Shown: positions 1 to 64,000, numbered from the stretch's first letter. The stretch: DNA of 64,000 bases from Candidatus Woesearchaeota archaeon (GCA_964354405.1 CAYGZP010000002.1:5061-69060), one strand, 5' to 3'. Program-made: numbers and translations. The notes: generated by a model not told the origin, from the sequence alone.

Positions 1-15
1 TTTTCTCGAACATTT

Positions 16-627
16 TCAGCCACATTTCAAAATTCTTTTAATTAAATTATTGATTTTTTCAAATTGATATTTTCTTTCTACTGCGATAGTATAAATTTTC
101 TCATCTGTTACACTTCCATTTCCTCGGGGCAACCCATCTAACGCAACACAAGTCATGAAATCTGAAATTGTTTCTTGGAAAGCTCGTCTTTTTCTTAATT
201 TTTCTGTTGGTTCAGGAGCTTTATAAAAACTGATATCAAGATAGTTGAGGAAAAATTTGTGAAAGAGTCTTTTTACTCTTGGAATGTGGGTTTCAGAGCT
301 CACCACAGCAAGTTTCTTCCAACCTTGCTCTCTGGCAAGATTTTTTATCTCATAAACATTAGCCTCTGTGTTGTGGGCATATAACGCAAATGGGTGGATT
401 TGTTCAACATCATCTCCATAATTTTTTAATCTGGAATCATCATACAAGTCGCCTTCAAAACCAGGATCATGGGCTTTTTTAGAATTAAATCCGTTTAAAA
501 CAAAATTGTCCGAGAAACCTTGATAATAAAGCTCAAGCGCTTTGTCTAATCTAAGCGCAGTTGTTTCATTATCCGCGCTCAAAACAACAATCGCATCATA
601 TTTATTTGCCATTTTATCCCCGCTCAC
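16..627 (-). CDS. DUF218 / YdcF-SanA-like protein
   Basis: 203-aa ORF. 'DAIVVLSADN' and 'LAVVSSETHIPRVKRLF' resemble the conserved blocks of the DUF218 fold. The GTG start overlaps the upstream stop (GTGA); an alternative ATG lies at 612. Confidence 0.5.
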   Translation of the reverse strand: MSGDKMANKYDAIVVLSADNETTALRLDKALELYYQGFSDNFVLNGFNSKKAHDPGFEGDLYDDSRLKNYGDDVEQIHPFALYAHNTEANVYEIKNLAREQGWKKLAVVSSETHIPRVKRLFHKFFLNYLDISFYKAPEPTEKLRKRRAFQETISDFMTCVALDGLPRGNGSVTDEKIYTIAVERKYQFEKINNLIKRILKCG

Positions 628-1694
628 AAAAGTTCTAATTTATTCAATCCTCTTTCTGTTACTGTGTACTCTTCAATGGGAGTTATCTCTCCATTAGAAT
701 CTTCTATACCATAAATAACCGCTTTCTCGAATTTTTTATCCTTTCCATTCAAATCAATTATTGAAAAAGTGCAAGTCCCTTGCCCCGCTCCAAATTCTCT
801 GCTCAAACTTCCCGGATTAATTAAGACAGTTCTACCGTATTTCTTTACTCCTCTGTTCACAGCACTTGAATGCATGTGCCCGAAAAGCCACAACACCGAG
901 GGTTCTTCTTGTTTCTGTAATTCTGCAAGATAAAGATTAAGAGCATAATTCCCGCCGCGAGACGAGTCATCTCCCTGGACTTTTGCTTGTCCATTCAAGA
1001 TATAATCCAAAACTCTAAGCGGTGGCATATGAGTAATCATGATATCAGAAGGATTATCTCTGAAAAAAGTCAGTGCTTCTGAATTAATTTCAGTTAAATT
1101 TCCTTTGTCATCAAATTTATGAGTCTCATTAAAAGGAACAACAATCTCTTGAGGAATCCATATTGGGCAAACATCTGCGCCACCATATCCCGCGATTGTT
1201 AAATTTGAACTGTTGCATTTGATATCTTTTTTCTGTAAATGCAAGCTATTCTCGAATATCTCCTGCATCAATTCATTGTTGTCATAATTTCCAGGCAATT
1301 TTAATGAAGGCAATTCAAGCTCGTCAAAAACTTCTGCCATTTTTTTGTATTTTTCTGCCATTCCTTCGCGAGCAACATCGGATAAATATAAATATTCAGC
1401 CCCAATTTTTTGTAATCCCTCGCTAAGATTTTGTTCAGAAAGCTCTTTTGCAAAATCAGTTAATTTTCCCTCAAATTTTTTATTTTGAGCCTGTAGATAA
1501 AGTTCATTAAGGTTTTCCATGTATCTTTCAAAAGTTTCTCGTAAAGCCCAAGGAGTATTGATAAAATCTCCGTTAGCAATCCACAAGTCTACTTTCTGTT
1601 CCAAGCCGAACCTTCCAGCTTTTTGCAACATCGCATTATCTTCATGTGAATCGGTGGTGTATAAGATTTTCATTTTTTTATTTCCCCGCTTCAT
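624..1694 (-). CDS. calcineurin-like metallophosphoesterase
   Basis: Motifs 'TTDSHED', 'ANGDF', 'PGNYDN' and 'FGHMH' occur in canonical order. An alternative ATG (MKILYTT) lies at 1673. Confidence 0.7.
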   Translation of the reverse strand: MKRGNKKMKILYTTDSHEDNAMLQKAGRFGLEQKVDLWIANGDFINTPWALRETFERYMENLNELYLQAQNKKFEGKLTDFAKELSEQNLSEGLQKIGAEYLYLSDVAREGMAEKYKKMAEVFDELELPSLKLPGNYDNNELMQEIFENSLHLQKKDIKCNSSNLTIAGYGGADVCPIWIPQEIVVPFNETHKFDDKGNLTEINSEALTFFRDNPSDIMITHMPPLRVLDYILNGQAKVQGDDSSRGGNYALNLYLAELQKQEEPSVLWLFGHMHSSAVNRGVKKYGRTVLINPGSLSREFGAGQGTCTFSIIDLNGKDKKFEKAVIYGIEDSNGEITPIEEYTVTERGLNKLELL

Positions 1695-2004
1695 AATTTC
1701 TGCGTTTTTTTAACAATATTCTTTTAGTTGTCATCACACATTCAACTTTATCTCTTTCATCCGCCAAGACCTCCTCTATTTTCTTTGGATCTTTGGTTTT
1801 TTTAAGCAATTTAAAAGCCCTTTTTATCTGCCCCGCGGCTATAGCATAAGAATAAGCTCTTACAAAATCTCCCTTTGATTCACAAAGTCTGCTTTCGTTA
1901 GAATACACCTGTTTCTTAGCCCATTCATAGAACTTATAAGATTTTACATAATTTCCATTCTTGAATGCATTGTCCGCTTCTTTAACAAGTTCATTTATTC
2001 TCAT
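1678..2004 (-). CDS. hypothetical helical protein
   Basis: 108-aa ORF, co-directional with and overlapping the downstream gene. K/E/Y-rich, helical-repeat-like. No recognisable motif. Confidence 0.3.
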   Translation of the reverse strand: MRINELVKEADNAFKNGNYVKSYKFYEWAKKQVYSNESRLCESKGDFVRAYSYAIAAGQIKRAFKLLKKTKDPKKIEEVLADERDKVECVMTTKRILLKKRRNYEAGK

Positions 2005-2117
2005 TTTATCTCAATTTTGATAAATTACAAAGGCAAAACCCATATTTAAATCTTGCTATTTGTCACTATTTAATAGTAGTATAATAAATATATAAAACGC
2101 CCTGAGTTAAAACAATC

Positions 2118-2888
2118 ATGATTTCATTCGAACCCTTGCACACTTTATTTCAGATAGGAAGCTTCAAAGTTTTCACATGGGGTTTCATGTTTGTGATTGG
2201 TTTTCTCGTTGCTTTATTATTGATCTGGCGCGAAGCAAGGAAACAGAAAATAGAAGATAGACATATCTATAATGTTGCTTTGTTGATATTAATAGGAGCT
2301 ATTATCGGCCCTCGTTTAGTGTTTGTTCTCGAGCATCTCGCTTATTTCGTTGAAAAACCCCTCGAGATACTCATGACGTGGCAGGGAGGCATCACAAGTT
2401 ATGGCGCTTTTCTCGGTGTGTTATTTGTATGGCTCTACGCAAGGAAACAAAAAGGCATAACATTCACACAAATCTTAGATTTAGTTGCTCCTTATCTTCT
2501 GTTAGCAATTGCAATCACAAGAATAGGATGCTTCCTTAACTGGGATGATTTAGGCAGCGCGAGTTCACTGCCGTGGGCAATTCAAGCAGGCAGTGATGTC
2601 GCAAGACATCCGACACAATTATATGAAAGTTTATACTCACTTGTGTCATTTTTCATCCTTCTCGGATTCAAGAAAATAAGAGATAAAGGCCGCGAGACAA
2701 AATTCAAGAAGTTATTGGAAAAACCTGGAGCCTTGTTCCTGTTCTTTTTAATATTTTACAGCTTCTTCCGTTTCTTTAATGACTTTCTTCGGGAGTATGA
2801 AACAAGTTTCCTTGGCTTGGCATTGAGTCAGTGGATTTGTCTTTTCATATTTATTTTTAGTTTTGCAATGTTATCTAGAAAAAGATAA
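2118..2888 (+). CDS. lgt: prolipoprotein diacylglyceryl transferase (Lgt family, divergent)
   Basis: Polytopic membrane ORF with Lgt-type blocks 'GPRLVFV', 'WQGGITSYGAFLG', 'RIGCFLNWDDLG', 'PWAI' and 'RHPTQLYES'. The Asn of the RIGNF block is replaced by Cys. Confidence 0.7.
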   Translation: MISFEPLHTLFQIGSFKVFTWGFMFVIGFLVALLLIWREARKQKIEDRHIYNVALLILIGAIIGPRLVFVLEHLAYFVEKPLEILMTWQGGITSYGAFLGVLFVWLYARKQKGITFTQILDLVAPYLLLAIAITRIGCFLNWDDLGSASSLPWAIQAGSDVARHPTQLYESLYSLVSFFILLGFKKIRDKGRETKFKKLLEKPGALFLFFLIFYSFFRFFNDFLREYETSFLGLALSQWICLFIFIFSFAMLSRKR

Positions 2889-4127
2889 TTACAACAGCTC
2901 GCCCCAGCCAATCAGTCTCCAATGCCCTTGATAGTTTCTCGCTAGGCCAACCCTCTCGCTCTTGAAAGGAACAATGGGGATTTTCAATACAAGTTCAATA
3001 TCATTTCCTTTGATTCTTATAACAGTTCCGACAGTTGTTGCAGTGTTCGCGCTAAGCATAAGATATTCATTAGTTTTCAAAGGCTCAATTTTAATAGCTT
3101 CTTTTTCTTTCGCTCCCACAATTTCCTTGAACAAGTTTACTTTTACAATAATCTTGTAGACAATTTCTGGCAGCGAGCCAGTCAAACCCGCGATACATCC
3201 AGCGAGTGAATCAGCTTTTGTCAAGAATGGGTCGAGAGAAGTTTGGATTGCCAGCGAGCCTGAAGGCAAAGCTTCTTTCAAATCATTATTTCCTGCTCGC
3301 AAGGCAAGAATTTTTGTCTTTACAGTCTTGTAGATTGTCTGATCATGTTTCTTTGAAGACAAGCCAGGCTTGATTTCAATTTCATCTCCAACATGCAAAA
3401 TTCCTTGTTTCAAAGTTCCGCCTAACACTCCTCCTTGGAGCTCTCTAGGCCGAGTTCCCGGGCGATTAATATCAAATGAACGAGCCACTAAGAACAATGG
3501 TTTGGATTTTTCATCTCTTTTGGGCGCAGTCAATTGTGTTATTGCCTCGAGCAGCGCGTCAATATTAATGGCCTGCTGTCCGCAGATAGGAATTATCACT
3601 GCATTTTCCGCGCTCGAGCCCTTGATAAACTCTCTGATTTCTTTGTATTGCTTGAGAGCTTGCTCTTTTGGTATCAAATCTAATTTGTTCTGCACAATAA
3701 TTATTTGTTTGATTCCTTTTGCCTCCAAGGCCAGCAGATGTTCTTTAGTCTGTGGCTGGGGAAAAGGCTCATTAGCTGCAATGACAAGAAGCGCGGCATC
3801 GATTATTGCAGCTCCCCCTAACATCGTCGCCATCAGCATCTCATGCCCGGGAGCATCGACAAAACTTACATATTCTATGTCTTTTGCCTTGCCTCCGCAC
3901 TCACACTCTTTCTTTGCCGTAAACTTTCCACACTTCTCGCATTTCCTGATGATTATGTCAGCATATCCCAACTTGATTGTAATTCCTCTTTTCAATTCTT
4001 CAGAATGCTTGTCAGCCCAAACTCCTGTGATCTGATACATCAGGGTTGTCTTGCCATGATCTATATGCCCAACTATCCCGATGTTCAGCAATGGTTGTTT
4101 AGTAAGAGTAATTTGTTCACTCATCAC
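2889..4127 (-). CDS. eif2g: translation initiation factor aIF2 gamma subunit
   Basis: GTPase motifs 'GHIDHGKTT', 'DAPGH' and 'NKLD', plus the Cys-rich zinc knuckle 'CEKCGKFTAKKECECGG' typical of a/eIF2 gamma. Confidence 0.95.
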   Translation of the reverse strand: MMSEQITLTKQPLLNIGIVGHIDHGKTTLMYQITGVWADKHSEELKRGITIKLGYADIIIRKCEKCGKFTAKKECECGGKAKDIEYVSFVDAPGHEMLMATMLGGAAIIDAALLVIAANEPFPQPQTKEHLLALEAKGIKQIIIVQNKLDLIPKEQALKQYKEIREFIKGSSAENAVIIPICGQQAINIDALLEAITQLTAPKRDEKSKPLFLVARSFDINRPGTRPRELQGGVLGGTLKQGILHVGDEIEIKPGLSSKKHDQTIYKTVKTKILALRAGNNDLKEALPSGSLAIQTSLDPFLTKADSLAGCIAGLTGSLPEIVYKIIVKVNLFKEIVGAKEKEAIKIEPLKTNEYLMLSANTATTVGTVIRIKGNDIELVLKIPIVPFKSERVGLARNYQGHWRLIGWGELL

Positions 4128-4171
4128 AGAACAAGAATAACTTTACTTTTAAATTTTGCTTAATTATATTC

Positions 4172-5045
4172 TTAAAGAATTTCTAACCAAGGGATACAGT
4201 TTTTTTTCAAATCTACAAGCGCATTCTCCCTTATTACTCTTACTCTTTCACGGGTTACTCCTAAAACTTTGCTGATATCTTCAAGACTTTGTATTTCATA
4301 TTCTCCAATACCAAAGTTTCTCATGACCACTTCTCTTTTTTTAATATTAAGTTTAGACAGTGCTAAATTGACTTGTTCGCTCATTTTTTTCGTTTTAAAA
4401 TTTTTTTGAAGGGATGGTCGCAACTCATCAAATGCTCCTAAAATCTGATTAGTATATTGATTCAAATAATCAGGTATTGGCTCTCTACATTGGGTTAAAT
4501 ACTCGTCAGCGTCGGAGTTTGCAGCATTTTCCAAGAATTCTTCGATTTCTTCTAGCGACAATGGTTTTTTTTGATGCTTCTAATGCAAGCCATACGTAAC
4601 AAACATCTTTCTTGATCTCTTGGGCTATTTCTTCAGATGTTGGGGTTCTTCCCAAATCCTTTTGTAATTTAAAAAGTGCTTTTTTTATTTGGTTTGTAAG
4701 GGGTTTGCCTTCCTTCGTATCCGCCCTTTTTATTTCATTCAACATAGCCCATTTAATGCCAATTCCAGCATAAGTACCAAATTTAACTCGTCTTTTCCAA
4801 TCATAAGTTCTGGCAGCCTTGATCAAAGCTTCATTCCCTGCGCTTATAAGGTCTTGATAATAGATATCAGAATTTGGATGATATAGCCTATTCGCATAAT
4901 ACACAACGAGCCTCAAATTAGAAGTTATCAAAGACTCCAAGGCTTTTTCATTTCCCCTTTCAGCTCTTCTTGCCAAGTTGATTTCCTCTCTTCTAGAAAG
5001 TAAGGAATATTGCCTAATTTTTTTAATATAATCGTGAAATTTCAT
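4172..5045 (-). pseudogene. sigma-70 family RNA polymerase sigma factor, split by a 1-nt frameshift in a homopolymer
   Basis: ORF 4506..5045 carries region 2 ('DLISAGNEALIKAARTYDWKRRVKFGTYAGIGIKWAMLNEI') and region 3 ('LGRTPTSEEIAQEI'). ORF 4172..4561 carries region 4.2 ('SLEDISKVLGVTRERVRVIRENALVDLKK'). The frames meet at the T8 run 4565..4572 (A8 on the coding strand). Removing one base gives one continuous ORF of about 290 aa. Confidence 0.8.
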
Positions 5046-5068
5046 TTTTATTTTTTAAATCTTATTGA

Positions 5069-5287
5069 TTAAACTAAAAACTCCTTTACAAAATAATCAG
5101 TTGTTGTAACATATAAATCTCCTTTATATCTCAAAGCGTGAAAATAGTCTCCATTCTCATCTTTTTGGAATTCATTTTCAAAAATAATCTCGCCGCCCCA
5201 TTTAAGAGCCCCACAGAAAGTTTCGAACTCTATAGGAATCGCGCTGTTTTTGATTTCTTTAACTAGTCTCGGGTTTTCTTCTGGCAT
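5069..5287 (-). CDS. hypothetical protein
   Basis: 72-aa ORF, 23 nt upstream of the sigma-like gene on the same strand. No motif recognised. Confidence 0.35.
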   Translation of the reverse strand: MPEENPRLVKEIKNSAIPIEFETFCGALKWGGEIIFENEFQKDENGDYFHALRYKGDLYVTTTDYFVKEFLV

Positions 5288-5292
5288 TTTGT

Positions 5293-5556
5293 TTATTCGC
5301 TTTTTCGTTGAATAAATTTAATAAGAGTTTTCAACTGCTCTTCATTAATTTCTCCCTGATTAGTTTGTCTTACAATCTTCTCCAAATCTTCCTTATGATA
5401 TTTTGAATCTGGAACAATTCCAATTATTGTTCTTTTTTGGGTGTATATATTATCTATACATTTATTAGTTGCTTCAATACCCCCGCAATGGTCTAAAATA
5501 TAACTCTCACTGCCATTACTTGCCTTACTTATAACGGAATACCAAAAGTTTATCAT
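5293..5556 (-). CDS. hypothetical protein
   Basis: 87-aa ORF with a 4-nt overlap with the upstream gene, suggesting an operon. No motif recognised. Confidence 0.35.
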   Translation of the reverse strand: MINFWYSVISKASNGSESYILDHCGGIEATNKCIDNIYTQKRTIIGIVPDSKYHKEDLEKIVRQTNQGEINEEQLKTLIKFIQRKSE

Positions 5557-5963
5557 TTTTTTACTTTTTGTAAATAAGGTTCAAAGAATTTTCTAAAGGA
5601 CTTATAGATACCATTTGCTTTTCTGAAAGTCTCTGCTTTGGCCTTGTCTTTACTGTTCTTCTCGTATTTCGTATCAGTATTACGTTTTAAATTTGTAAAC
5701 CAAAAATTATCCAAATCCCCATTATTTCCATAATCAACAAAAACTCCCAGTTCTTCATCAGCTATACGCATATAAATTGCGTCATTTGCCGAATCTGCGT
5801 TAAAAAAGAGGATGCACTCTTTTGAATCATATACATCTGGTTGGTCTACCCAATATGCCTTTCCTTTTGGGAACTCCATAAGATAAATTTTAGGTTCCAT
5901 TGCGGGTTTCCCTTGCGTAAACAAGCACAATGCCAAACTTGAAACCAAAGTTGCGAGTGACAT
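5553..5963 (-). CDS. hypothetical secreted protein
   Basis: 136-aa ORF with an N-terminal hydrophobic segment 'LATLVSSLALCLF' (signal-peptide-like, LALC). Tightly packed with its neighbours. Confidence 0.4.
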   Translation of the reverse strand: MSLATLVSSLALCLFTQGKPAMEPKIYLMEFPKGKAYWVDQPDVYDSKECILFFNADSANDAIYMRIADEELGVFVDYGNNGDLDNFWFTNLKRNTDTKYEKNSKDKAKAETFRKANGIYKSFRKFFEPYLQKVKK

Positions 5964-5964
5964 T

Positions 5965-6669
5965 TTAGATAAGCTCCCTTGGTTTTAAAGCCTGATAAAA
6001 GAAAGTATTGGCATTAGGTTGGCTATGCCATTCTTTTCCGTCATACATCAAATCAATGCTTCTTGAATTTTTAAAAAGATGAATGACATGACCTTCTTTT
6101 ATTTCTAAGGTTTTGTGATATTTTTCCGGGTTTTCTAGAGAATCATATTTTATTTTTGCATCAAATGCGCGAGTGAGTTTTGGATCAAATATATTAAAGC
6201 CGAGTTTCAGGTTCTGTCGCCAGTAATCTAAAAAACTGTCATTAATGTGACAACCAAAAATATAGATGGGAAAATGACGGGGTTTAGACTGGTTATTATC
6301 AGTTAAGAAAAGCATTGGCCGAATTTTAAATCCTTCTTTAGAAAAGTCTTCTACTATTTCAGGATAAACCTCAAACATTTGGCTTTCTGTCTTATAAAAA
6401 GAAGCAATTAAAATCCCTTCTTTTTCTTCTTTATCCTTTAAACGAATCTTTTGTGGTGTCTGTTTTTTCCCAATATTAGCGTATACCGGAGAAAAACATA
6501 TTTTCTTATTGTGCCAATTCACTTGGAACCAACTTTCATCAAACTGGTTTGCTATGATAATTCTTTTCGTAAAGCCTTCTGTTTCTATTATCTCTCCTGC
6601 ATGAATTGTAAGTCCTTCCCTTAATACTCTTTCTAACTGTTTTTGTATCATAGAATCAAAAAGAACCAA
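5965..6669 (-). CDS. hypothetical protein
   Basis: 234-aa ORF, 1 nt from the downstream gene. No motif recognised. Confidence 0.4.
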   Translation of the reverse strand: MVLFDSMIQKQLERVLREGLTIHAGEIIETEGFTKRIIIANQFDESWFQVNWHNKKICFSPVYANIGKKQTPQKIRLKDKEEKEGILIASFYKTESQMFEVYPEIVEDFSKEGFKIRPMLFLTDNNQSKPRHFPIYIFGCHINDSFLDYWRQNLKLGFNIFDPKLTRAFDAKIKYDSLENPEKYHKTLEIKEGHVIHLFKNSRSIDLMYDGKEWHSQPNANTFFYQALKPRELI

Positions 6670-6713
6670 TTATATTTAAATCTTTCCTTTAAAGTGATAA
6701 CAAAATCTAAGAA

Positions 6714-7043
6714 TTACTTCTTCAATGCCTTTTCAAGAAGCTCTCGAGCTTCCTGCTCTGCTCTGATAAATAAGTTTTCATTGCTGGCATCTCTTGAAAT
6801 ATAGCCTTCTCTCCCTCCCTTAAACTCGTCAAAACTAATTTCGCCTTCCTTATAGTTTTTATCAACCCACCATCCTTTTCCATCCATGTAAATCATATTT
6901 CCTTTTATTTTTTCAAATCTTCGACCTTCAATCTCAATAGGATAATTTATCTTCGGCCTTGCAGAATAAAGGCAGTTCAAGCTCGCCGAAATAAGAAAAA
7001 TTTCCAAGCCTTTCCTTGCCCAATCAGAGATTTTACTCAACAT
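6714..7043 (-). CDS. hypothetical protein (start uncertain)
   Basis: The ORF is open up to 7184, but that version overlaps the upstream gene by 150 nt. The ATG at 7043 (MLSKISDW...) leaves only an 11-nt overlap. Hydrophobic N-terminus 'GLEIFLISASLNC'. Confidence 0.35.
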   Translation of the reverse strand: MLSKISDWARKGLEIFLISASLNCLYSARPKINYPIEIEGRRFEKIKGNMIYMDGKGWWVDKNYKEGEISFDEFKGGREGYISRDASNENLFIRAEQEARELLEKALKK

Positions 7044-7362
7044 ATTGTACTCGCCCGTTTTCTTGCGACCATTTGTACTTTGCAGCCCATTTATCCATAT
7101 ACACTTTGCCTCTTGGATTATCTTTATTAAATCCTTCTCCAGTAGCCTGTACAAAAACGCTCTCAACTGTCCCATCACAATCAAAATCCCAACCTATTCC
7201 AATAATCTGATAGTCCGTGCCTGTTGGAAAAATGTGATGAGCACCAGTTTGCTTGTCCTTGAAAGTTATAAAATCATATTCCGCCTCTTTGCCCTTTTTA
7301 CATCCGCCGATGACTGTTCCAAGAATTAATGCCACTAAACAAACTAAATTTTTAGCTTTCAT
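7033..7362 (-). CDS. putative lipoprotein
   Basis: 109-aa ORF. N-terminus 'MKAKNLVCLVALILGTVIGGCKKG' is a signal peptide ending in a lipobox-like I-G-G-C. Confidence 0.45.
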   Translation of the reverse strand: MKAKNLVCLVALILGTVIGGCKKGKEAEYDFITFKDKQTGAHHIFPTGTDYQIIGIGWDFDCDGTVESVFVQATGEGFNKDNPRGKVYMDKWAAKYKWSQENGRVQYVE

Positions 7363-7415
7363 GACTTAATGAGATAAACGCGGTTTTTAAATATTTATAG
7401 AGAAAAACATATACT

Positions 7416-8357
7416 TTACTCTTCCTTTTCTTTTTTTACTTGCACGAGTATTTCTAAAGGAAAAGCTCTTTTCAACGCGCCAGCAACTCTTGCTCTTACT
7501 TCTATGCTATCTCTTTCGGGAATATTGCGAATAATAAACTCTGGCTCTGTCCGTAATTTATCTGTCCTGATAGATTCCCATCTTGTTAGCTCGAAAGAGT
7601 AAGCATAAAGAGTTATGGGATTCTTTTGCAAACTCTTAACGAGAGGATCATTGTATGGCGCTAAACTTTCTGATGCAATCAATCCATAACAAATATTAAA
7701 AATTCTTCTTATATCCCCGTCTCTTGAGATTCCTGCAAATGATTGTTCGAGAGAGGAATTAAATAAAGCCGCAACAAATTTTTCATCTGTATGCAAATCT
7801 TTATACTCTCGCCTTAAAGGTTTTTTATCATGCTCCCCCGAGCTTGCTCTTGCTTTTTTCAATCCAATCCTATCTGTGATTAATTGAATGCTTTCTGTCA
7901 GAAGCTCATAGCGTTCTTTGTTTAGTGGACAATATATTTTTTCCTTGGCTTTTTTTACTAAATTATAAGAAAGAAGACAAATTTCATTAAAAATATCTTT
8001 ATTAACATTTGGTTTGCCAAGCTCGCGCCCATATTTTACTCTTTTAGGGACATTTGCTTCGAAAGTATTAAGATTTCTGGCTTTTTCACTTATTACCTTA
8101 GAAAAATTAGCAAGCTCGTCAACAGTATCCTCAATTACCATTATGTTAGGCCGGTCTAAGAATTCCAGTGCGTCATTTAAACTGTCTCTTGCTTCGCGTA
8201 ATTGAGCAAATTTTAGCTCCTTATAAATTCGCGCCTTGTAAATATTGTCAGTAAAGTTTTGTTGCTTAAATATGTTAGAAGTATCAGTCAAAAGTCTAGG
8301 CTCTCTTGCCACTATTTCTTTAGGACTCAAATCAATTTCCAATATGTGATTTCCCAT
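7416..8357 (-). CDS. hypothetical protein
   Basis: 313-aa ORF, first gene of the co-directional ORFan run 8357->5069. No motif recognised. Confidence 0.4.
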   Translation of the reverse strand: MGNHILEIDLSPKEIVAREPRLLTDTSNIFKQQNFTDNIYKARIYKELKFAQLREARDSLNDALEFLDRPNIMVIEDTVDELANFSKVISEKARNLNTFEANVPKRVKYGRELGKPNVNKDIFNEICLLSYNLVKKAKEKIYCPLNKERYELLTESIQLITDRIGLKKARASSGEHDKKPLRREYKDLHTDEKFVAALFNSSLEQSFAGISRDGDIRRIFNICYGLIASESLAPYNDPLVKSLQKNPITLYAYSFELTRWESIRTDKLRTEPEFIIRNIPERDSIEVRARVAGALKRAFPLEILVQVKKEKEE

Positions 8358-8419
8358 CTTAGCTCAGATTTAACATTTAATTGAAATATTTAAAGATTTA
8401 TTCAGAAACAAGGGGCTTA

Positions 8420-8899
8420 TTATTTCTTGTCTTCTTCCTTTACTTCTGGCTTGGTTTCTTTAGTCTCTTCTTTCGCCTCGGTTTTTGCCTCGCCTTCTGT
8501 TTTTGTTTCAGCCTTAGCCTCTTTCTTTCCAAAAATCTCTTCAAAACTTTTCGCGCCTTCTTTCGAGACTTTCAAGTTGATTTGAATAATGTCATCGGCG
8601 ATTGTGTTTCCCCTGACAAGTTTTCTCAATCTTAATCCTTGGGGCTTTTTTGTCTTCATTCCTTTTCCTCTAGTCAAAAGCAATCGTTTTCTTCCGACAC
8701 CTTCAACTTGTGAGAGCGCTGGGAATCCCGCCTTGTCGCTCGCCCCTGTGATTACAAACTCGTAGCCCTCTAATTTTGGCTCAAAATCTTTGCCCTCAAC
8801 TTTTTCTCCAAGCTTCTTGCCGACAAAAACATCGCTGCCCGAGTCTAAGTGCACAGTTCTCTTGCTTTTAGGATCTCCAATGTCTAATTTGAATGGCAT
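8420..8899 (-). CDS. rps6e: 30S ribosomal protein S6e
   Basis: 'ITGASDKAGFPA' and 'RKRLLLTRGKG...LRLRKLVRGN' match the S6e family. C-terminal K/E/T-rich low-complexity tail. Confidence 0.85.
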   Translation of the reverse strand: MPFKLDIGDPKSKRTVHLDSGSDVFVGKKLGEKVEGKDFEPKLEGYEFVITGASDKAGFPALSQVEGVGRKRLLLTRGKGMKTKKPQGLRLRKLVRGNTIADDIIQINLKVSKEGAKSFEEIFGKKEAKAETKTEGEAKTEAKEETKETKPEVKEEDKK

Positions 8900-8940
8900 G
8901 ATAATCTCTCGATTTGATTATTTAAAAAACTATCTAAAAA

Positions 8941-10770
8941 TTAAATCCCCCAAGTCGCTTTTGTCTTTCTCTTGATTTCTGCGACTTCCTGCAGAACTTT
9001 TATCTCGCCCGCGCTCAGATATTTTTTATTTTCTTTGAGCCTGAGAAACTCATCTCCTGTCAAATCAGCATAAAGAACATCATCTTCTTGCAATTGCCTT
9101 CCAAAAGTTATGTTTGGCAACGAGATGGCAAGTTCCATGCCTGCTTTTGCTTTTTCAACGCTTTTGCTCTCGCTCTGCATTCCTTTAATCTTAGCAATTT
9201 CCTCGCCTTTTTCATTAATTAACTGCACTCCTGGTTTCAATGAGCCAACTTCAATCTTTACCCCAAATATAGCAGGATGACTTTGCCTGAAGCAGCAATT
9301 TCTCATAACTTTTAATTTGCAAGGCCAAGTTAATCCTTCTAACCTTTGTCTTTCAACTTCTAAGGCTTTTTCAGCCCGCCACTTGACAAGTTGCTCGATA
9401 ATATGATAGATAATGTCACTCTCGATTATTTTTACTCTCTCATCAGCCACTATTCCCTCCTCTCGCGCAACATTAAACCCTACAACAACAGTTTCAAGAG
9501 GATCTGTTTCAGTGTTCGAAGCTGCAAGCGAGATATCTTGTCTTTTTATATTGCCTATCTCAGCTTTTTTCACTCTAACTCCCTCTTTTCTCAACAAGAA
9601 CAACAAAGCTTCCATCGAGCCCAAACTGTCTGCCCTCACAATAATCCCTTCTTTGTCAAGTCTCAACACTTGCTCGACTTCTTTCTGCAAAAGTTCTTTT
9701 AACTTCGCAATTTTTTCAGTTTTAGAATCTTTAACAACAATAAATGGCATGCCCGGCACAAGTTCTTCTGTTATCGGTAAGTATAATTTAATGCCAGTTG
9801 CCGCGCGCACTTCATCAACGGGTTCAAAGCCCTTTCCTAAAGGCAGCGCGCGGAACAATGCGCGAATTTTTGTCTCAACTGCTTTGCCAAGTGTCGCGAT
9901 AACAAGAGTATCTCTTTTAGTGAGAGTGCTGTCATAAAGCACAGCTTCGATTATCACAAATCCTTTTTCCTTTTTTATTTCAAGAATAGTTCCTTTACCT
10001 TCTGTTCCGATGGATAATCTTCCTTTCAAGAATCTCTGAGCTAATCCTGCAAGCATAACAATAAGCTCAGGCAAGCCCTCATGAGTCTTTGCAGAGCAAG
10101 GCACTAACGCGAGTTGTTTAGTAAAGTCGCTGATGCGATAGAACAAGTCAGAATCAAATCCTAAACTTGTAAAACCATTGATAATTCTGTAAAGTTTCTT
10201 GTCAAAATCATCTTTAGTGAACTTTGGTTGTTTCTCGATGCTTTCCATCAAGCTTTCCCCGCGTTTAGTCCATCCAGCGATATTATCAACTTTATTAAGT
10301 GCAACAATAAAAGGAACTTTATTAGCCCTGAGAACTTCAATGCTCTCTCGAGTCTGTTCCATTATTCCCTCGTTAATATCAATCACAAGAATCGCCAAGT
10401 CTGCGAGAGCTCCTCCTCTTTTCCTCAAGTTAGTGAAAGCCGCATGCCCTGGAGTGTCAATGAAAAGAAAACCAGGGATATCAAGTTTAATGTTGAATTT
10501 GTCCAAGAGTTTAGAACATCTGCCCTTAACAATTGCCGATGGAACTAAAGTAAAAGAAATTTTCTGAGTTATCTTGCCAGCTTCCTTTGCCGCAACACAG
10601 GTTCCTCGAATACTGTCGAGCAAAGTAGTCTTGCCGTGGTCGACATGTCCAGCAACTGTAACAATCGGCTGTCTTATATTTGATAGTGCGAGCGGTGCGA
10701 GAGCTGGCGCTGGCTTTTGTATTAATTTTCTTTCCTTGACTTTGACTTTAATCTCTACTCGGGTTGCCAT
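8941..10770 (-). CDS. infB: translation initiation factor aIF5B (IF2-like GTPase)
   Basis: 'VAGHVDHGKTTLLD', 'IDTPGH' and 'NKVD'. The 609-aa length and domain order are typical of aIF5B. Confidence 0.9.
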   Translation of the reverse strand: MATRVEIKVKVKERKLIQKPAPALAPLALSNIRQPIVTVAGHVDHGKTTLLDSIRGTCVAAKEAGKITQKISFTLVPSAIVKGRCSKLLDKFNIKLDIPGFLFIDTPGHAAFTNLRKRGGALADLAILVIDINEGIMEQTRESIEVLRANKVPFIVALNKVDNIAGWTKRGESLMESIEKQPKFTKDDFDKKLYRIINGFTSLGFDSDLFYRISDFTKQLALVPCSAKTHEGLPELIVMLAGLAQRFLKGRLSIGTEGKGTILEIKKEKGFVIIEAVLYDSTLTKRDTLVIATLGKAVETKIRALFRALPLGKGFEPVDEVRAATGIKLYLPITEELVPGMPFIVVKDSKTEKIAKLKELLQKEVEQVLRLDKEGIIVRADSLGSMEALLFLLRKEGVRVKKAEIGNIKRQDISLAASNTETDPLETVVVGFNVAREEGIVADERVKIIESDIIYHIIEQLVKWRAEKALEVERQRLEGLTWPCKLKVMRNCCFRQSHPAIFGVKIEVGSLKPGVQLINEKGEEIAKIKGMQSESKSVEKAKAGMELAISLPNITFGRQLQEDDVLYADLTGDEFLRLKENKKYLSAGEIKVLQEVAEIKRKTKATWGI

Positions 10771-10812
10771 ACAGAAATAATAATTAGAATATTAATAAAT
10801 CTTCCTTGTTGC

Positions 10813-11676
10813 TTATGTTTGTTTAGTCAAAATATAGCCCACCAATTTTTCTAATCTTGAATTAGATTGAATTTTTCTTATATTTTCAATAATTCTTTCT
10901 TTTCTTTTAGTGAGATGTTGCTTAACTTTGTCTGCACCAAATATATATACAGAGGTATCAGAATCTATGTGGGTCAATTTTCCTACAACTTCTGGTTTTC
11001 CTTCGAGATCTCTTAAATCATCAAACAACTGATAAGCCACGGATAAATCAACTCCTATTTCATCAAAAATCCCCATTTCTTTTTGAATATCACAGAGGTA
11101 AGCTGGTAATACAGAGGCTAAATAAAAAAATCCATTCTTTTTTTCTATTGATTTCCATAATTCTTTTTTATCTTTATTTTTTCTTAAGTCAAGCTCTTGA
11201 CCAGAAATCACTTTTCTTATTGTACTATCTATTAAAAGTTGTACTGAACTTAATTTATTTAAATTACTAAGATGTTCTTGAGCATTTTTATATAAAAGCT
11301 CTCTTCCAATATCCCAAAGATATATGCTTGCAAGAATTGCTATGTCTTCTCCAAAAGCTTTATGTGCCGTTGGTTTTCCCTTTCTTATAGGAGAATTATC
11401 CATGCAAGGAAGGTCATCTAAAATTAAAGAAGCATGATGAACAGCTTCAATTCCAACAGCGCTTTTTAAAAATTTTGATTGATCTCCCCCCAACATTTGA
11501 TAAATTTCTAATCCTATCAAACTTCTATATCTATGTCCTTCTGGATAAATAGTATAAACTGCCGCTTCACAATGGCAAAATCTTAATTTTGAAGAGAAAG
11601 TTTGTTCTAAGCAACTTTCTATTGCTTTATTAATCAATTCTTTTTGTTGATTTATATAATCCTCTATACCTTCCAT
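10813..11676 (-). CDS. idsA: polyprenyl (geranylgeranyl/farnesyl) diphosphate synthase
   Basis: First Asp-rich motif 'LILDDLPCMDNSPIRKGKPTAH' and second 'YQLFDDLRD'. Confidence 0.8.
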   Translation of the reverse strand: MEGIEDYINQQKELINKAIESCLEQTFSSKLRFCHCEAAVYTIYPEGHRYRSLIGLEIYQMLGGDQSKFLKSAVGIEAVHHASLILDDLPCMDNSPIRKGKPTAHKAFGEDIAILASIYLWDIGRELLYKNAQEHLSNLNKLSSVQLLIDSTIRKVISGQELDLRKNKDKKELWKSIEKKNGFFYLASVLPAYLCDIQKEMGIFDEIGVDLSVAYQLFDDLRDLEGKPEVVGKLTHIDSDTSVYIFGADKVKQHLTKRKERIIENIRKIQSNSRLEKLVGYILTKQT

Positions 11677-11753
11677 TTAAACTAAAAAGAGGATAGTTAT
11701 ATAAAATTTTATGTACTCAAGTGAATATTAAAGGCAAAAAGAAACAGAAACTT

Positions 11754-11990
11754 TTAAACTTTATCACCGAGAGTTGTTTTTTCAGATTGTTTAGAATTAT
11801 ATGTGCAGTGATTGGATTTATCCCTATAGCCACAAGTTATATAATAGTTTGGATTTTTTGATCCATTTGCTAAATTGCATTCGCCAGTATTTGGATTTCT
11901 TTGACTTGCGCCATGATCTACACATTTCTTAATCAAAGGCTTATACATCTCTATAAATCTTTCACGAATGTTTTCGTTTTCTTCTGGCAT
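11754..11990 (-). CDS. hypothetical small Cys-containing protein
   Basis: 78-aa ORF with 4 Cys. No motif recognised. Confidence 0.3.
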   Translation of the reverse strand: MPEENENIRERFIEMYKPLIKKCVDHGASQRNPNTGECNLANGSKNPNYYITCGYRDKSNHCTYNSKQSEKTTLGDKV

Positions 11991-12026
11991 TTTATCCTTT
12001 GTTTATTTTTTTGATTTATTTAAATT

Positions 12027-13121: not shown

Positions 13122-13216
13122 AATTACAAAAGCCTAGGATATTTATAAACCTTTCTATTTGTTACTCCTAAGCAGTTACAATAATACACAAAAGAAAATA
13201 TAACTAACAAATAATT

Positions 13217-50602: not shown

Positions 50603-51108
50603 AAACGGAGTTTAACATGAAGAAAGAAACAAGGACTTACAACGATAGGAGAAGATATATCATTGAAGCAGTGGCCAAGAGAAGAAAGAAAATCCGTCTA
50701 AAAGCAGTAGAACATTTGGGCGGGAAATGTATACGATGTGGATATAATAAATATCCAGAAGTGCTTGAATTTCACCATAGAGATCCTTTGAAGAAGGAGT
50801 TCAACGTTTCAAGCAAAGGCCATTGTCGAAGTTGGGAGAGAGTCCAAAAAGAAATAGAAAAATGCGATTTGTTTTGTGCAAATTGCCACAGAGAAGTTCA
50901 TGTTAAGCTAAATAAGTTAGCAGCTTCTCAAGGAAACTTGGGAATGAACAGCGAGTAAATTCAGGGAAACCCTAACGTAAAGTCGAGGGCAATCCTGAGC
51001 CAAGCCTCGAAAGAGGAAGGTGCAGAGACTAGACACTCGCCACCTAAAACTTAGAAATAAGTAATGGTGAAGGTATAGTCCTACCCTCTAAGAAATTGGA
51101 GAAGGTCG
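50603..51108 (+). mobile_element. group I intron (IC3-like core) with HNH endonuclease ORF
   Basis: P3 GCGAGT (50951-56) pairs with ACTCGC (51035-40). P4 CAGG (50962-65) pairs with CCTG (50994-97). 'GGGAAACCCTAA' and 'AATCCTGAGCCAAGCC' are present. P6 is CCTC-GAAA-GAGG (51005-16). 'GGAAGGTGCAGAGACTAGAC' contains P7 GACTA (51027-31), which pairs with TAGTC (51076-80). P8 is ACTTA-GAAA-TAAGT (51049-62). The intron ends ..TCG (terminal G at 51108) and follows a U. Confidence 0.8.
50617..50958 (+). CDS. HNH homing-endonuclease-like protein (intron-encoded)
   Basis: 'GGKCIRCGYNKYPEVLEFHHRDP...KCDLFCANCHREVH' is the CxxC...HH...N...CxxCH HNH zinc-finger layout. The stop codon lies at the P3/J3-4 boundary of the intron core. 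Confidence 0.75.
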   Translation: MKKETRTYNDRRRYIIEAVAKRRKKIRLKAVEHLGGKCIRCGYNKYPEVLEFHHRDPLKKEFNVSSKGHCRSWERVQKEIEKCDLFCANCHREVHVKLNKLAASQGNLGMNSE

Positions 51109-51246
51109 TAACCGCGGGGTCGCAAGTTCGAACCTTGCCCGGGGCGTTTTTATCTTCCCCCTTCCTTCTTTTTATATTATATTGATTGTATTTTTTCACA
51201 TAAATGTTTTTATATCTTCAAATCTTGATGTTGAAGGCTAAAGAAA

Positions 51247-51864: not shown

Positions 51865-52029
51865 GGGCCCGTAGCTCAGCCTGGCTTAGAGCACTGCTCT
51901 GATATTGGTTACAGCCTCTTCAAGAGGTGAGGAAACTGGAGCACCTTGTGCTTCACTGTAACTATATGACAAATCGCGAGATTTGTTTCAGACAGGCAGG
52001 GGTCCTGTGTTCAAATCACAGCGGGCCCA
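51865..52029 (+). tRNA. tRNA-Ile(GAT) with 89-nt canonical-position (37/38) BHB intron (51905..51993)
   Basis: Acceptor GGGCCCG/CGGGCCC, D arm GCTC..GAGC, anticodon stem CTGCT/GGCAG, loop CTGATA|intron|A, T arm CTGTG-TTCAAAT-CACAG. Exon CTGA pairs with intron TCAG (51988-91), flanked by 3-nt bulges. Intron helix GTTACAG/CTGTAAC. Confidence 0.85.
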
Positions 52030-58020: not shown

Positions 58021-58329
58021 ATGCAATTTTGTCCGAAGTGTGGAACAATTTTAGTGCAGAAGAAAAGCAAGTTTTGTTGCCCTAAATGCAATTACTGTAC
58101 AAAAGAGAAAGTCAAAATTATTTCAAGTGAGAAAATGGAGAAGGGCGCTAAAATCAATGTGTTGCATGAAAAAGATGCGAATGTTTGGCCAACAGTAACT
58201 GAAACATGCCCGAAGTGCGGAAATGAAAAAGCATATACATTCTCAGCGCAGATGAGAGCTGGAGACGAAGCAGAGACAAGATTTTTCAAGTGCACGAAAT
58301 GCAAATACTCTTGGCGAGACTATAGTTAA
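58021..58329 (+). CDS. tfs: transcription factor S (TFS / RpoM, TFIIS C-terminal zinc ribbon)
   Basis: N-terminal ribbon 'CPKCGTILV...CPKC'. C-terminal 'CPKCGNEKAYTFSAQMRAGDEAETRFFKCTKCKYSWR'. Confidence 0.9.
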   Translation: MQFCPKCGTILVQKKSKFCCPKCNYCTKEKVKIISSEKMEKGAKINVLHEKDANVWPTVTETCPKCGNEKAYTFSAQMRAGDEAETRFFKCTKCKYSWRDYS

Positions 58330-59816: not shown

Positions 59817-61448
59817 ATGACAGACAACAAACAGCCAGTTTATATTTTGCCAGAAAATGTTCAAAGAATGTTAGGTAGAGATGCCCAAAGAAACAACATT
59901 CTTGCGGCGCGCATAGTCGCAGAGACAATTAAAACTACTCTTGGGCCAAAAGGCATGGACAAGATGTTAGTTGATAGTATCGGAAATATCACTGTAACAA
60001 ATGATGGTGTAACAATCTTAGAAGAGATGGAGATAGAACATCCTGCTGCAAAGATGATGGTTGAAATTGCCAAAACTCAGGAAGCTGAAGTCGGCGATGG
60101 CACCACAACCGCTGTAATTTTGGCAGGCAAGCTTCTAGAAAACGCCGAGAAGCTTCTTGATGAGAAGATTCATCCGACTGTCATAACAAAGGGCTACAGA
60201 ATCGCAGCTGAGAAAGCACAGCAGATTGCCCGAGAATTAGCAATAGGTGTCTCGCCAGAAAAAGAAGTGCTGTTAAAACAGATTGTCATGACAGCAATGA
60301 CTGGCAAAGGTGCAGAATCAGCAAAGGAAAAGTTGAGCGATGTTGTAGTCAAGGCAGTCAAGCAAGTCTTAGAAAGAACAGAAGAAGGACTTTCAATTGA
60401 CAAGAATAATATTAAGCTTGAAAAGAAAAAAGGCGAAGGTATAGAAGACACTGAGCTTATTTCAGGGATAGTTCTTGACAAGCAGCGAGTTTCTCAAGAC
60501 ATGCCATCACAAGTAAGAAATGCTAAAATTGCCTTGTTAGACATGGCAATGGAAGTCAAGGGCCCTGAAACCGAAGCCAAGATTCAAATCACAGCTCCTG
60601 AACAACTTCAAGCGTTCATAGATCAGGAAGACAAAATTCTAAGAAGTATGGTTGAAAAAATTAAGAAAGTAGGCGCTAATGTAATCTTGTGCCAGAAAGG
60701 CATTGACGATGTCGCGCAATATTATCTATCAAAGTTAGGCATATTTGCGGCAAGAAGAATAAAAAAGAGCGACATTGATTTGATAGCAAAAGCCACTGGA
60801 GCAAAAATAGTTAGCAATTTGAATGAACTCACTCCAGAAGACTTGGGCAAAGCCAGACTTGTCAAAGAAGTCAAGGAAGGCAATGAAGAGGGCATGACTT
60901 ATATTACGGGCTGTGACAATCCAAAAGCGCTCACAATCCTTATTCGCGGAGGCACAGAACATGTTATTGACGAGTTGGAAAGAGCAATCAAGGATGGAAT
61001 CGGAGATGTTATAGTTGCCTTGGAGAAAGGTTTTGTTGTTGCCGGCGGCGGCGCCTTTGAAATGGAACTGTCAAAAAGACTCCAAGAATTCTCGCAAAGT
61101 GTCAAAGGCCGCGAGCAGCTTGCAATCAAAGCATTCGCAGAATCTTTAGAAGTCATCCCAAGAACACTCGCTGAGAATGCAGGCTTGGATCCTATAGACA
61201 TTTTAACAGAACTCAAAGCAAGACATGACAGGAAAGAAGTTACCATTGGCTTAGATTTGACAACAAGCTCAAAAGAAAGCGCGATATGCAACACCCTAGA
61301 CAGAGGAATTATCGAGCCTCTTGAGATAAAGAATCAAGCTCTTAAGTCAGCAAGTGAAGTTGCAATGATGATTCTAAGGATAGATGATGTCATAGCCTCC
61401 AACAGGGGCTCGGGCAAGATGCCCCAGATGTCCCAGGAAGAATATTAA
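59817..61448 (+). CDS. ths: thermosome subunit (group II chaperonin)
   Basis: '[12 protein letters not shown]', '[13 protein letters not shown]' and '[12 protein letters not shown]'. Confidence 0.95.
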
Positions 61449-62124: not shown

Positions 62125-62352
62125 ATGACAATTACTTTAAACGGTTTTGGAGAAATTGAAAATAAAGTTTATAAAGTAAAAGGAATAAAAATCAAATGGT
62201 GGAAAACCCCCACTACAGAACTTAAGGTTGTTTTTGAAAAAATACACGACGTTGAACCTATGACCGATGAAGAATGTAAAGAAATAATAACCAGTTTAGA
62301 AAATCTCAGTAAGTGGGACGAATATAAGAAATTAAAAAAAGAATTGGATTAA
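62125..62352 (+). CDS. hypothetical protein
   Basis: 75-aa ORF. Its stop lies 1 nt before the next ATG. Confidence 0.3.
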   Translation: MTITLNGFGEIENKVYKVKGIKIKWWKTPTTELKVVFEKIHDVEPMTDEECKEIITSLENLSKWDEYKKLKKELD

Positions 62353-62353
62353 A

Positions 62354-63184
62354 ATGAAAAAAGAAAATAAACCGAAGGTAGATAAAGAGTACAAGTGGTG
62401 GGGCATAGGGGCTATTATAGGTGGATTGATTCTTATGTATTTTACTAATATAATTGTAGGGGCTATTGTATTAATGTTCGGAATTGTTACTTTAATACTT
62501 AGAAAAGATTGGAATTTATTAGTGATAGGGATTTTGGTTATTTTATTAGGTGGAACATATTTCATAGATGAATTAATGTCCAAACAAAGTTTTTCTTATA
62601 TTAGTGTTATACTAATTCTAATTGGTGTATATGCTTTAATAAGGTACTACAAGTCAGGTGAAAAAGAAGTTTCAAATAAAAAGAAACTTCTAATAATTGG
62701 GTTAGTATTGTTAGTTTTAATTATGTTAGTTTCAACATTCCTTTTCGAATCAACAATAAGCACAGAAAATATAAAAATAAAGATTTATGGAGAATATTTT
62801 ACTTCGAATGATTCTTTATATAGCGAGTATTCGTTAAACAAGGGATTGGCAGATGGAACTTATACTACTGAATACGCATACAATGAACTTACTAAAATTG
62901 AAAAAGAAATAAATGAAAGTGAGACAAAAATCAACGAGGCTTCAAAATATAGTCTTATAACCTATATTAGATGGAGCGGTTTCAGTGAGCGTAAGGAATA
63001 TACAGAAATATATCCTAATGGTTATAGAAGTATGATAGATTTTGAAAGAACATTGATAAGTGCAGGTGCATTTGAAGAGAAATGTGATTCTTCCGGCTGT
63101 AATGATGGGTGGTGCAAAGTAGAAGGAACAGATTATTGTTGTCCAAAGCCAAACATGAAGATTGTTGATGGTTATTGTTATTAG
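62354..63184 (+). CDS. hypothetical membrane protein with Cys-rich C-terminus
   Basis: Four or five TM helices, then a soluble region ending 'CDSSGCNDGWCKVEGTDYCCPKPNMKIVDGYCY'. Confidence 0.4.
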   Translation: MKKENKPKVDKEYKWWGIGAIIGGLILMYFTNIIVGAIVLMFGIVTLILRKDWNLLVIGILVILLGGTYFIDELMSKQSFSYISVILILIGVYALIRYYKSGEKEVSNKKKLLIIGLVLLVLIMLVSTFLFESTISTENIKIKIYGEYFTSNDSLYSEYSLNKGLADGTYTTEYAYNELTKIEKEINESETKINEASKYSLITYIRWSGFSERKEYTEIYPNGYRSMIDFERTLISAGAFEEKCDSSGCNDGWCKVEGTDYCCPKPNMKIVDGYCY

Positions 63185-63197
63185 AAAACCTTAAAAT

Positions 63198-64000
63198 CTA
63201 ACTCTCTCTTTCTTCCGGTTCGAGATATCTCAATCCTAACTTTTTGTAAACTTCTTCCTCGCTCTTGCCTGCTATCATTTTATTGGTTTTTCTGTCGAAT
63301 AATCCATACTCATTCAATTTGAAACCCTTTCTAATCGCAATCTCTCTCAACTTTATATTATGTTCTTTGCTTCCGGTAAAATACATTAGCGCAGCTCCGT
63401 AAGAGTTTTTTGAAACAACTCTAACATCTGCTTGAATTTCATTTTTTAATATCACAGCAGATTTTGTCTTGCCCTTAGCCAAAACTCGCGAAACTTCAGG
63501 CATCGAGGTGAAAACACTCATAACTTTCTCCGCGTTCTTGGAAACAACAAGAATGTCTATGTCGCGCACAGTTTCTTTTCTTCTTCTGATTGAGCCCGCG
63601 ACATCAATCTTTTCAATAACTTTTGTTTTCTTGAGCTGCTTGACAATATTTTCTGCAACAGGCAGAACTTCTTCAATAGGATATCGCTTGTCTTTTTTCA
63701 TTGATAATCCTTTTAATATTTCTTGCTCAGATTTCTCGCCGAATCCCGGAAGTTTTGCAATCTTGTGTTGCTTGATTGCTTTTTCCAAGTCTTTCAAATT
63801 TTTAATCCCAAGAATTTCATTCAATTTCTTGATTTTCTTCGGCCCTATTCCAGGAATTTCCATGAGCTCGCCAACATCTGCGCTTATACTTGCTTTGAGT
63901 TTTTCATGCGCGATGATTTTTCCTGTTTGCAAGTATTCTACAATCTTCTTGGCAAGAGCCTCTCCGACTCCAGGCAGATCTTCCAATCCTTTCAGTCCTC
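63198..64000 (-). CDS. DNA polymerase X family core (partial, N-terminus beyond window; no PHP domain)
   Basis: HhH 'LPGVGEALAKKI' and 'IPGIGPKKIKKL'. Nucleotidyltransferase 'VAGSIRRRKETVRDIDILV'. 'FTGSKEHNIKLREIA'. The frame stays open to the window edge. The protein ends at '..LEPEERES', where PolX-PHP fusions normally continue. Confidence 0.75.
   Translation of the reverse strand, partial: GLKGLEDLPGVGEALAKKIVEYLQTGKIIAHEKLKASISADVGELMEIPGIGPKKIKKLNEILGIKNLKDLEKAIKQHKIAKLPGFGEKSEQEILKGLSMKKDKRYPIEEVLPVAENIVKQLKKTKVIEKIDVAGSIRRRKETVRDIDILVVSKNAEKVMSVFTSMPEVSRVLAKGKTKSAVILKNEIQADVRVVSKNSYGAALMYFTGSKEHNIKLREIAIRKGFKLNEYGLFDRKTNKMIAGKSEEEVYKKLGLRYLEPEERES

Follow-up and report, generated by a model that had tools for sequence, protein, structure and literature searches.

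Sigma-70 factors, murein-like lytic transglycosylases and other bacterial systems have been described on contigs of Pacearchaeota and Woesearchaeota, and the study that reported them ruled out mis-binning on the basis of the neighbouring archaeal genes and suggested bacterial hosts for these archaea (Castelle et al. 2021, PMC8204110). The terms diacylglyceryl transferase, NrdR and GGDEF do not occur in the main text of that study, and no tRNA group I intron was noticed in it. Here we analyse a 64-kb stretch of DNA (hereafter referred to as the window), which spans positions 5061 to 69060 of the 192-kb contig C2 of a Candidatus Woesearchaeota genome (assembly G000; 833,623 bp in 51 contigs, completeness 98.4%, contamination 1.3%). 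In this DPANN genome, a prolipoprotein diacylglyceryl transferase (Lgt), a sigma-70 family gene, an SLT lytic transglycosylase-domain protein, a stand-alone GGDEF protein, the repressor NrdR with its operators, a secreted protein with a type IX secretion system (T9SS)-like tail and a tRNA-Asn gene interrupted by a group I intron lie among archaeal core genes. We conclude that, with high probability, the window is a normal part of the chromosome of a small DPANN archaeon, and that its bacterial-type genes crossed between the domains long ago and have since come to behave like the genome's own.

Several of these features have close described counterparts. For lipoprotein synthesis, a 2025 study notes that Lgt and Lsp homologs had not been identified in archaea, and describes AliA and AliB instead (PMC12462473). 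NrdR is present in some archaea, though rare (PMC9110341), and its published bacterial sites consist of two 16-bp boxes with a linker of 15–16 bp (PMC13584703). Short GGDEF-only cyclases occur on DPANN contigs, and their ancestral retention has been left open (2026, PMC13725321). All 39 archaeal group I introns of an earlier survey reside in rRNA genes, and matches of type IC3 were set aside there as doubtful (Nawrocki et al. 2018, PMC6125680).

In the form in which it was first put, the observation adds one more case to a published property of Pacearchaeota and Woesearchaeota. Because the mosaic of the window restates that property, we give it modest weight. The co-occurrence of Lgt with the signal peptidase LspA and the tRNA-Asn intron family look like the newer parts of the mosaic. 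Tentatively, we propose that both may be new: a complete bacterial-type lipoprotein maturation pair, Lgt and LspA, that is retained in strict co-occurrence and under purifying selection (27/121 genomes), together with a trnL-like group I intron, present in at least 10 of 151 genomes of the order, that would be the first in a tRNA to be assigned securely to archaea.

Integration among archaeal core genes

Domains were called with Pfam profiles, tRNAs with ARAGORN (introns allowed) and group I introns with Rfam (Table 1). A first-pass annotation of the window had listed archaeal markers throughout and bacterial hallmark genes between them; Pfam finds every protein marker on that list, as well as RPA, MetRS and diphthamide synthase, and all seven bacterial-type features are present, with the corrections given below. 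The tRNA intron on the list, putatively of the BHB type, corresponds to the 89-nt intron of tRNA-Ile(GAU). The same annotation had placed each of them within tens of nucleotides of archaeal genes on the same strand. This is true of the sigma-70 gene, the tail-protein gene and the tRNA, but not of Lgt, which abuts the aIF2-gamma gene convergently on the opposite strand, nor of the GGDEF gene, whose neighbours are an antiporter gene and nrdR rather than archaeal marker genes.

In the codon-usage comparison that the first-pass annotation had proposed, the bacterial-type genes match the rest of the genome: they fall between the 18th and 98th percentiles of the genome's own open reading frames (ORFs), and score no worse than the archaeal markers. 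The measure is able to detect foreign DNA, because contigs C3, C8, C20 and C22 of the same bin receive clearly negative scores. The GC content of the window (0.33–0.42) is even over its full length. Furthermore, four sequencing runs, each assembled independently, yielded contigs that match the window at positions 506–9045 and 10365–15344 with 100% identity. Their contigs reproduce the order DUF218, metallophosphatase, Lgt, aIF2-gamma, sigma-70, small ORFs and S6e, as well as the order AI-2E, Memo, SLT and polyprenyl synthase, and the Memo/SLT/polyprenyl synthase junctions were found again in three run assemblies. Five relatives of the same family (G123 and G150, which belong to the same genus, and G148, G152 and G153) and two metagenome contigs have the same slots and junctions. 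Codon usage, the per-run assemblies and the synteny of the relatives thus agree on integration over a mis-binned or chimeric contig, as had been argued from the window alone, and assembly chimerism is very unlikely.

C3 (52 kb, GC 0.44), C8, C20, C22 and other small contigs of G000 have GC contents of 0.44–0.73, unlike the main contigs; their probable source is phage or bacterial DNA assigned to the bin by mistake, and they have no contact with the window. TATA-like strings are seen upstream of bacterial-type genes, but are weak evidence in AT-rich DNA, and we do not rely on them.

To place the window in its lineage, we surveyed 121 genomes of the same class, each of about 0.5–1.6 Mb. The gene families recur in 7–55% of these genomes, and three of them occupy conserved slots within the family; they are thus widespread in related archaea, an outcome that the first-pass annotation had itself named as refuting its reading. 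The description of the set as unusually dense is not supported. Several of these gene families tend to sit together in the same class genomes. Their distribution is patchy, and whole taxonomic families are without the genes. The Por_Secre_tail profile used for the tail-protein count matched none of 14 control genomes, and its sensitivity is doubtful.

The bacterial-type features probably form three layers. The first, lineage-wide and vertically kept, comprises NrdR with its tandem operators, the Lgt/LspA pair and the stand-alone GGDEF protein. The second consists of accessory genes of patchy occurrence that turn over among close relatives, namely those for the sigma-70 factor, the SLT protein and the protein with the T9SS-like tail. 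The third is mobile, a group I intron at a fixed tRNA-Asn site that spreads or decays across the order.

Table 1. Features of the window, with LspA from elsewhere in the genome, and number of class genomes (of 121) with a match to the family
Feature	Position	Strand	Evidence	Class genomes
Lgt, divergent subfamily	2118-2888	+	PF01790, 191.4 bits (cut-off 24.9)	28
aIF2-gamma	2889-4127	-	Pfam GTP_EFTU + eIF2_C; lies between Lgt and sigma-70, adjoining each	
Sigma-70 family gene, regions 1.2, 2, 3 and 4	4172-5045	-	Pfam matches on both ORFs	27 (region 2)
S6e	8420-8899	-	Pfam	
aIF5B	8941-10770	-	Pfam	
Membrane-anchored SLT lytic transglycosylase-domain protein, 364 amino acids	12027-13121	-	PF01464, 24.5 bits (cut-off 21.3; weak)	22
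Archaeal CCA enzyme	18093-19400	+	Pfam	
Stand-alone GGDEF protein (predicted diguanylate cyclase)	21307-21993	+	PF00990, 151 bits, profile positions 1-161 of 161	20
Promoter-like TTTATAAA	22077-22084	+	TATA-like, before the NrdR-box-like palindromes	
Two NrdR-box-like palindromes	22088-22103, 22118-22133	+	10/16 and 13/16 against the 16-bp consensus	
NrdR repressor	22205-22642	+	Zn_ribbon_NrdR PF22811, 45.6 bits; ATP-cone PF03477, 79.3 bits	67 (Zn-ribbon; 55%); 13/13 in sister family f2
Class II-type ribonucleotide reductase, 983 amino acids, presumed NrdR target	22674-25625	+	Ribonuc_red_lgC, 406 bits; Ribonuc_red_2_N	
TFE, rhomboid, TBP, MCM block (archaeal core)	39041-44564	+	Pfam	
TFE	39041-39838	+	Pfam	
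TBP	41821-42390	+	Pfam	
MCM	42558-44564	+	Pfam	
aIF2-beta	46203-46628	+	Pfam	
Secreted protein, T9SS-type C-terminal sorting-domain-like tail	47045-47947	+	PF18962, borderline	12 (Por tail)
aIF1A	48008-48373	+	Pfam	
tRNA-Asn(GUU), interrupted after position 35	50568-51147	+	ARAGORN	
Group I intron, 506 nt	50603-51108	+	RF00028, 79.3 bits (cut-off 50), at 50894-51102, model positions 1-253	8
HNH-like ORF in the intron, 113 amino acids	50617-50958	+	PF01844, E 0.005 (weak)	
tRNA-Ile(GAU) with 89-nt intron	51865-52029	+	ARAGORN	
TFS	58021-58329	+	Pfam	
Thermosome	59817-61448	+	Cpn60_TCP1, 587 bits	
LspA (signal peptidase II)	G000:C1:375976-376365		PF01252, 84 bits	

The Lgt/LspA pair and the GGDEF–NrdR locus

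The Lgt match covers positions 2–238 of the 240 in the PF01790 profile. The gene adjoins aIF2-gamma in all five family relatives, with protein identities of 84, 75, 67, 66 and 48% that track the divergence of the neighbouring genes, and the ratio of nonsynonymous to synonymous substitution rates (dN/dS) is 0.06–0.08, with dS saturated. Lgt and LspA are found together in exactly the same 27 of the 121 class genomes, and LspA in none of the other 94. The pair therefore speaks against the statement that archaea have no identified Lgt or Lsp homologs, and deserves a note because that statement stands in the literature (PMC12462473).

The system resembles the Escherichia coli Lgt (PDB 5azb)/LspA system in that both PF01790 and PF01252 proteins are present, the equivalents of Lgt residues R143, R239 and Y235 are kept, and the genome encodes ORFs with a lipobox. 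Both arginine residues are essential in Lgt (PMC12462473). It differs from bacterial Lgt–LspA in that the Lgt of this family has a tyrosine in place of H103 and a cysteine in place of N146, in all seven family orthologs compared. We take Y235, H103 and N146 of the E. coli enzyme to be residues that matter for function, and, to judge from these replacements, a changed lipid donor for the Lgt of this family is possible. The lipobox pattern matches 29 ORFs of the genome, about 15 of which have a convincing signal peptide and lipobox cysteine; Lgt and LspA would lipidate and process these approximately 15 proteins. On a related metagenome contig, bacterial-type DnaB and DnaA genes are inserted between aIF2-gamma and Lgt (L146:10160-13106 and L147:6206-9152); in the window, the aIF2-gamma/Lgt junction is seamless.

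The GGDEF protein has a GGEEF active-site motif, with an RKED I-site five residues upstream. Its gene is kept upstream of nrdR in four of four family relatives at 66–79% identity, and the GGDEF–NrdR pair is present in all four relatives examined, at 66–84% identity. Like the DPANN GGDEF-only cyclases described previously (PMC13725321), it is short and stand-alone, has archaeal flanks and retains an intact GGEEF motif. However, whereas the preliminary view of that study was that archaeal chromosomes do not carry multiple copies, this genome has four GGDEF matches, along with one HD-GYP-type HD_5 match; no EAL or PilZ match was found in the genome.

The operators of NrdR, which the first-pass annotation had proposed, are predicted from the sequence: the protein has both the Zn-ribbon and the ATP-cone, and tandem boxes are conserved in five genomes. 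A plain consensus scan of the window returned a single good box (13/16). The second box is credible because the relatives keep the tandem layout, with box centres 30–31 bp apart and 12–15 of 16 consensus positions matched upstream of nrdR in G150, G123, G148 and G152. In the window and these four relatives, a conserved string ending in TTTATAAAG directly precedes the boxes. The architecture corresponds to that of bacterial NrdR and its boxes (PMC9110341, PMC13584703), comprising a Zn-ribbon, an ATP-cone and palindromes about 31 bp apart before nrdR and the ribonucleotide reductase (RNR) gene, and it looks autoregulated because the boxes lie upstream of both genes. By contrast, the host is an archaeon, and the putative boxes stand right downstream of a TATA-like element. 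Because they directly follow this element, repression would act on TBP/TFB-dependent initiation; on the simplest view, an NrdR tetramer bound just downstream of the TATA-like box would keep polymerase from being recruited to nrdR and the RNR gene.

The RNR of the window shares only 27–29% identity with the RNRs that occupy this slot in G150, G123 and G148, and the reductase seems to have been replaced while the repressor and the operators stayed. In about 15 class genomes, an NrdR-type Zn-ribbon opens a frame of 785–900 amino acids (G020:C4:21411-21536, G059:C21:4335-4454), as if an NrdR-like ribbon had been joined to a large protein, which may be RNR itself. A gene at 26242–27873 adjoins the RNR and thioredoxin genes and encodes a 543-residue protein that is 51–70% conserved in the family relatives; its only match, a weak one to ThyX (Thy1), covers the final third of the sequence.

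Variable genes and the tRNA-Asn intron

The first-pass annotation had reported a sigma-70 factor at 4172–5045. All of its regions are present, but they are not contained in one polypeptide, being divided between two overlapping ORFs of 179 and 129 amino acids. The split, a +1 frameshift, is due to one extra A in the homopolymer at 4565–4572 (A8), and this A8 run is seen in all four separate run assemblies. On metagenome contig L146, an intact 290-residue ortholog with an A7 run occupies the same slot and shares 71% identity over the N-terminal 179 residues; an intact sigma-70 gene lies between the small ORFs and aIF2-gamma on two metagenome contigs, and the best non-self match comes from an archaeal contig with conserved synteny. 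In this population, an A7-to-A8 frameshift breaks the gene, and its product would be inactivated or dependent on slippage. G150 lacks sigma-70 in this slot, with the next segment following straight after the aIF2-gamma flank, and no sigma-70 match was found in the syntenic stretches examined from G123, G152, G148 and G153. We found no RsbW-type (PF13581) or STAS (PF01740) match in the genome; the bacterial RNA polymerase core was not searched for. The contigs of Castelle et al. (PMC8204110) likewise had no anti-sigma factor, whereas the present locus differs from them in its frameshifted sigma-70 gene and in an SLT protein that is small (364 residues) rather than giant. The action of a sigma factor with an archaeal polymerase is unexplained here and in the literature. 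Between sigma-70 and S6e (5293–8357), five small or medium ORFs have no Pfam match; this run is partly conserved in the relatives and in L146, at 35–40% identity.

The SLT protein holds the sequences MEES, GLIHTQ and AVNCG, which correspond to the E-S, GL..Q and A.N.G motifs; we take these to be the SLT motifs, including the catalytic Glu-Ser. It would act on bacterial murein, and further murein-cutting genes are present elsewhere in the genome. One non-self relative was found, with 73% identity, on a 2.4-kb contig. For the SLT gene and the polyprenyl synthase gene, no counterpart was found when the corresponding slot was compared in the family relatives. The tail of the secreted protein scored 24.5 bits against PF18962 with hmmscan and 27.3 bits in the genome scan, around the cut-off of 27; the T9SS machinery itself (PorU, PorV or SprA) would not be expected in an archaeon. 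Its gene is absent in G150 and G123, where the gap between DUF424 and aIF1A is 45 bp and 59 bp, respectively. Three relatives of this protein were found, and the contigs of two were looked up: one is an archaeal contig of 53.7 kb and the other is uninformative.

The group I intron called in the first-pass annotation is well supported by the Rfam match, and its host is the sole tRNA-Asn gene of the genome. At the junctions (..GGCUGU/AAAC and ..GGUCG/UAAC), a U ends the 5′ exon and a G ends the intron, and excision restores tRNA-Asn(GUU). The same tRNA-Asn site, with a near-identical core, is occupied in nine further genomes from the order (10/151 in total), and these span three families. The ten related introns are 206–567 nt long, with a compact core of about 206 nt; three contain an ORF of 111–113 amino acids and the rest have ORFs of at most 32. 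Their peripheral stems show compensatory changes, as judged by eye. The string GGCAATCCTGAGCCAAGC is present in all ten cores, and the full 17-mer GGGCAATCCTGAGCCAA in seven, including that of the window; this 17-mer serves in 72 papers as primer g of the trnL(UAA) intron. The primer-g 17-mer and the compact core would fit the IC3-type assignment of the first-pass annotation.

These introns share with bacterial and plastid trnL-UAA-type introns and with archaeal rRNA group I introns a full-model match, U and G at the splice sites and optional ORFs. They differ from the rRNA introns of Nawrocki et al. (PMC6125680) in their host, an archaeal tRNA-Asn(GUU), and in their insertion after position 35; every other group I match in the class sample lies in 23S rRNA. 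The tRNA-Asn of the same-genus genome G123 is without an intron. Judged from these comparisons, the intron is mobile and has been kept going inside one order of archaea. In G150, a 37-nt insert is located just 3′ of the tRNA-Asn anticodon loop (L152:5043-5153); the window intron sits two or three bases upstream of that insertion point, and one genus thus displays three tRNA-Asn states. A second, weaker group I match (44.7 bits) lies in a 23S rRNA gene about 5 kb upstream of the window (G000:C2:5-249).

Age and origin of the bacterial-type genes

If the genes were recent transfers from a bacterial host or neighbour, they would mark an ongoing association. Such an origin would fit the absence of the sigma-70, SLT and tail-protein genes from the same slots in same-genus genomes, the additional murein-cutting genes and the bacterial hosts suggested by Castelle et al. 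(PMC8204110). However, codon usage is fully native, and the closest sigma-70 and tail-protein relatives found sit on archaeal contigs. The sigma-70 gene predates this strain, because related contigs carry its intact ortholog at this very position. For none of the bacterial-type genes of the window did a close bacterial donor come to light; for Lgt, a scan of species-representative genomes with one peptide pattern returned bacterial matches of at most 35% identity. We consider recent transfer improbable.

NrdR, Lgt/LspA and GGDEF might alternatively have been retained from the common ancestor of Archaea and Bacteria, and lost elsewhere in Archaea. Lgt is the one family of the bacterial-type set for which a tree was built (93 sequences, unrooted); it pointed to no donor. 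In this tree the other DPANN Lgt sequences form a single clade (SH-aLRT 89), as retention would predict, but the clade nests among the bacterial sequences and not outside them. Similarly, NrdR is present in more than half of the class genomes and the option has been left open for GGDEF (PMC13725321), whereas the patchiness within the class, in which whole families lack the genes, and the reported rarity of NrdR in archaea (PMC9110341) count against it. Ancestral retention is distinctly improbable. An assembly or binning artefact that joined bacterial fragments to archaeal ones is scarcely credible: the bin does contain foreign small contigs (C3, C8, C20 and C22) of differing GC and codon usage, but the contig that contains the window is 192 kb long and even in GC, six junctions are reproduced with 100% identity in the four per-run assemblies, and the same junctions recur in five other genomes and two metagenome contigs.

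Old acquisition is the reading that we prefer, and three observations weigh against it. First, the window Lgt is on a long branch (2.04) and, in the free tree, falls outside the main DPANN clade, grouping with one Woesearchaeota, one Paceibacterota and one Synergistia sequence. Because of this long branch outside the DPANN clade, a separate acquisition of Lgt by this family is possible, although an all-DPANN clade that includes the window copy is not rejected (approximately unbiased test, p 0.296). Second, the GGDEF/NrdR, tail-gene and intron junctions lie outside the independently assembled stretches and are covered by the relatives only. Third, the fact that same-genus genomes lack the sigma-70, SLT and tail-protein genes in these slots fits recent gain and loss alike, and cannot tell between them.

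A life in close contact with bacteria, put forward as speculation in the first-pass annotation and suggested also by Castelle et al. (PMC8204110), would be plausible for this archaeon. The window provides a clean, well-controlled example in which old, domesticated inter-domain genes stand beside variable ones and a mobile intron. NrdR operators behind an archaeal TATA-like box would offer a simple system in which a bacterial repressor works on archaeal transcription, and the tRNA-Asn intron is relevant to a long-standing problem, the relation between group I introns and archaeal tRNA introns. The Lgt/LspA pair bears on the making of archaeal lipoproteins and on the membrane lipids of DPANN archaea. 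If its predicted function is true, it raises the question of which lipid these cells, possibly dependent on acquired lipids, attach to their proteins.

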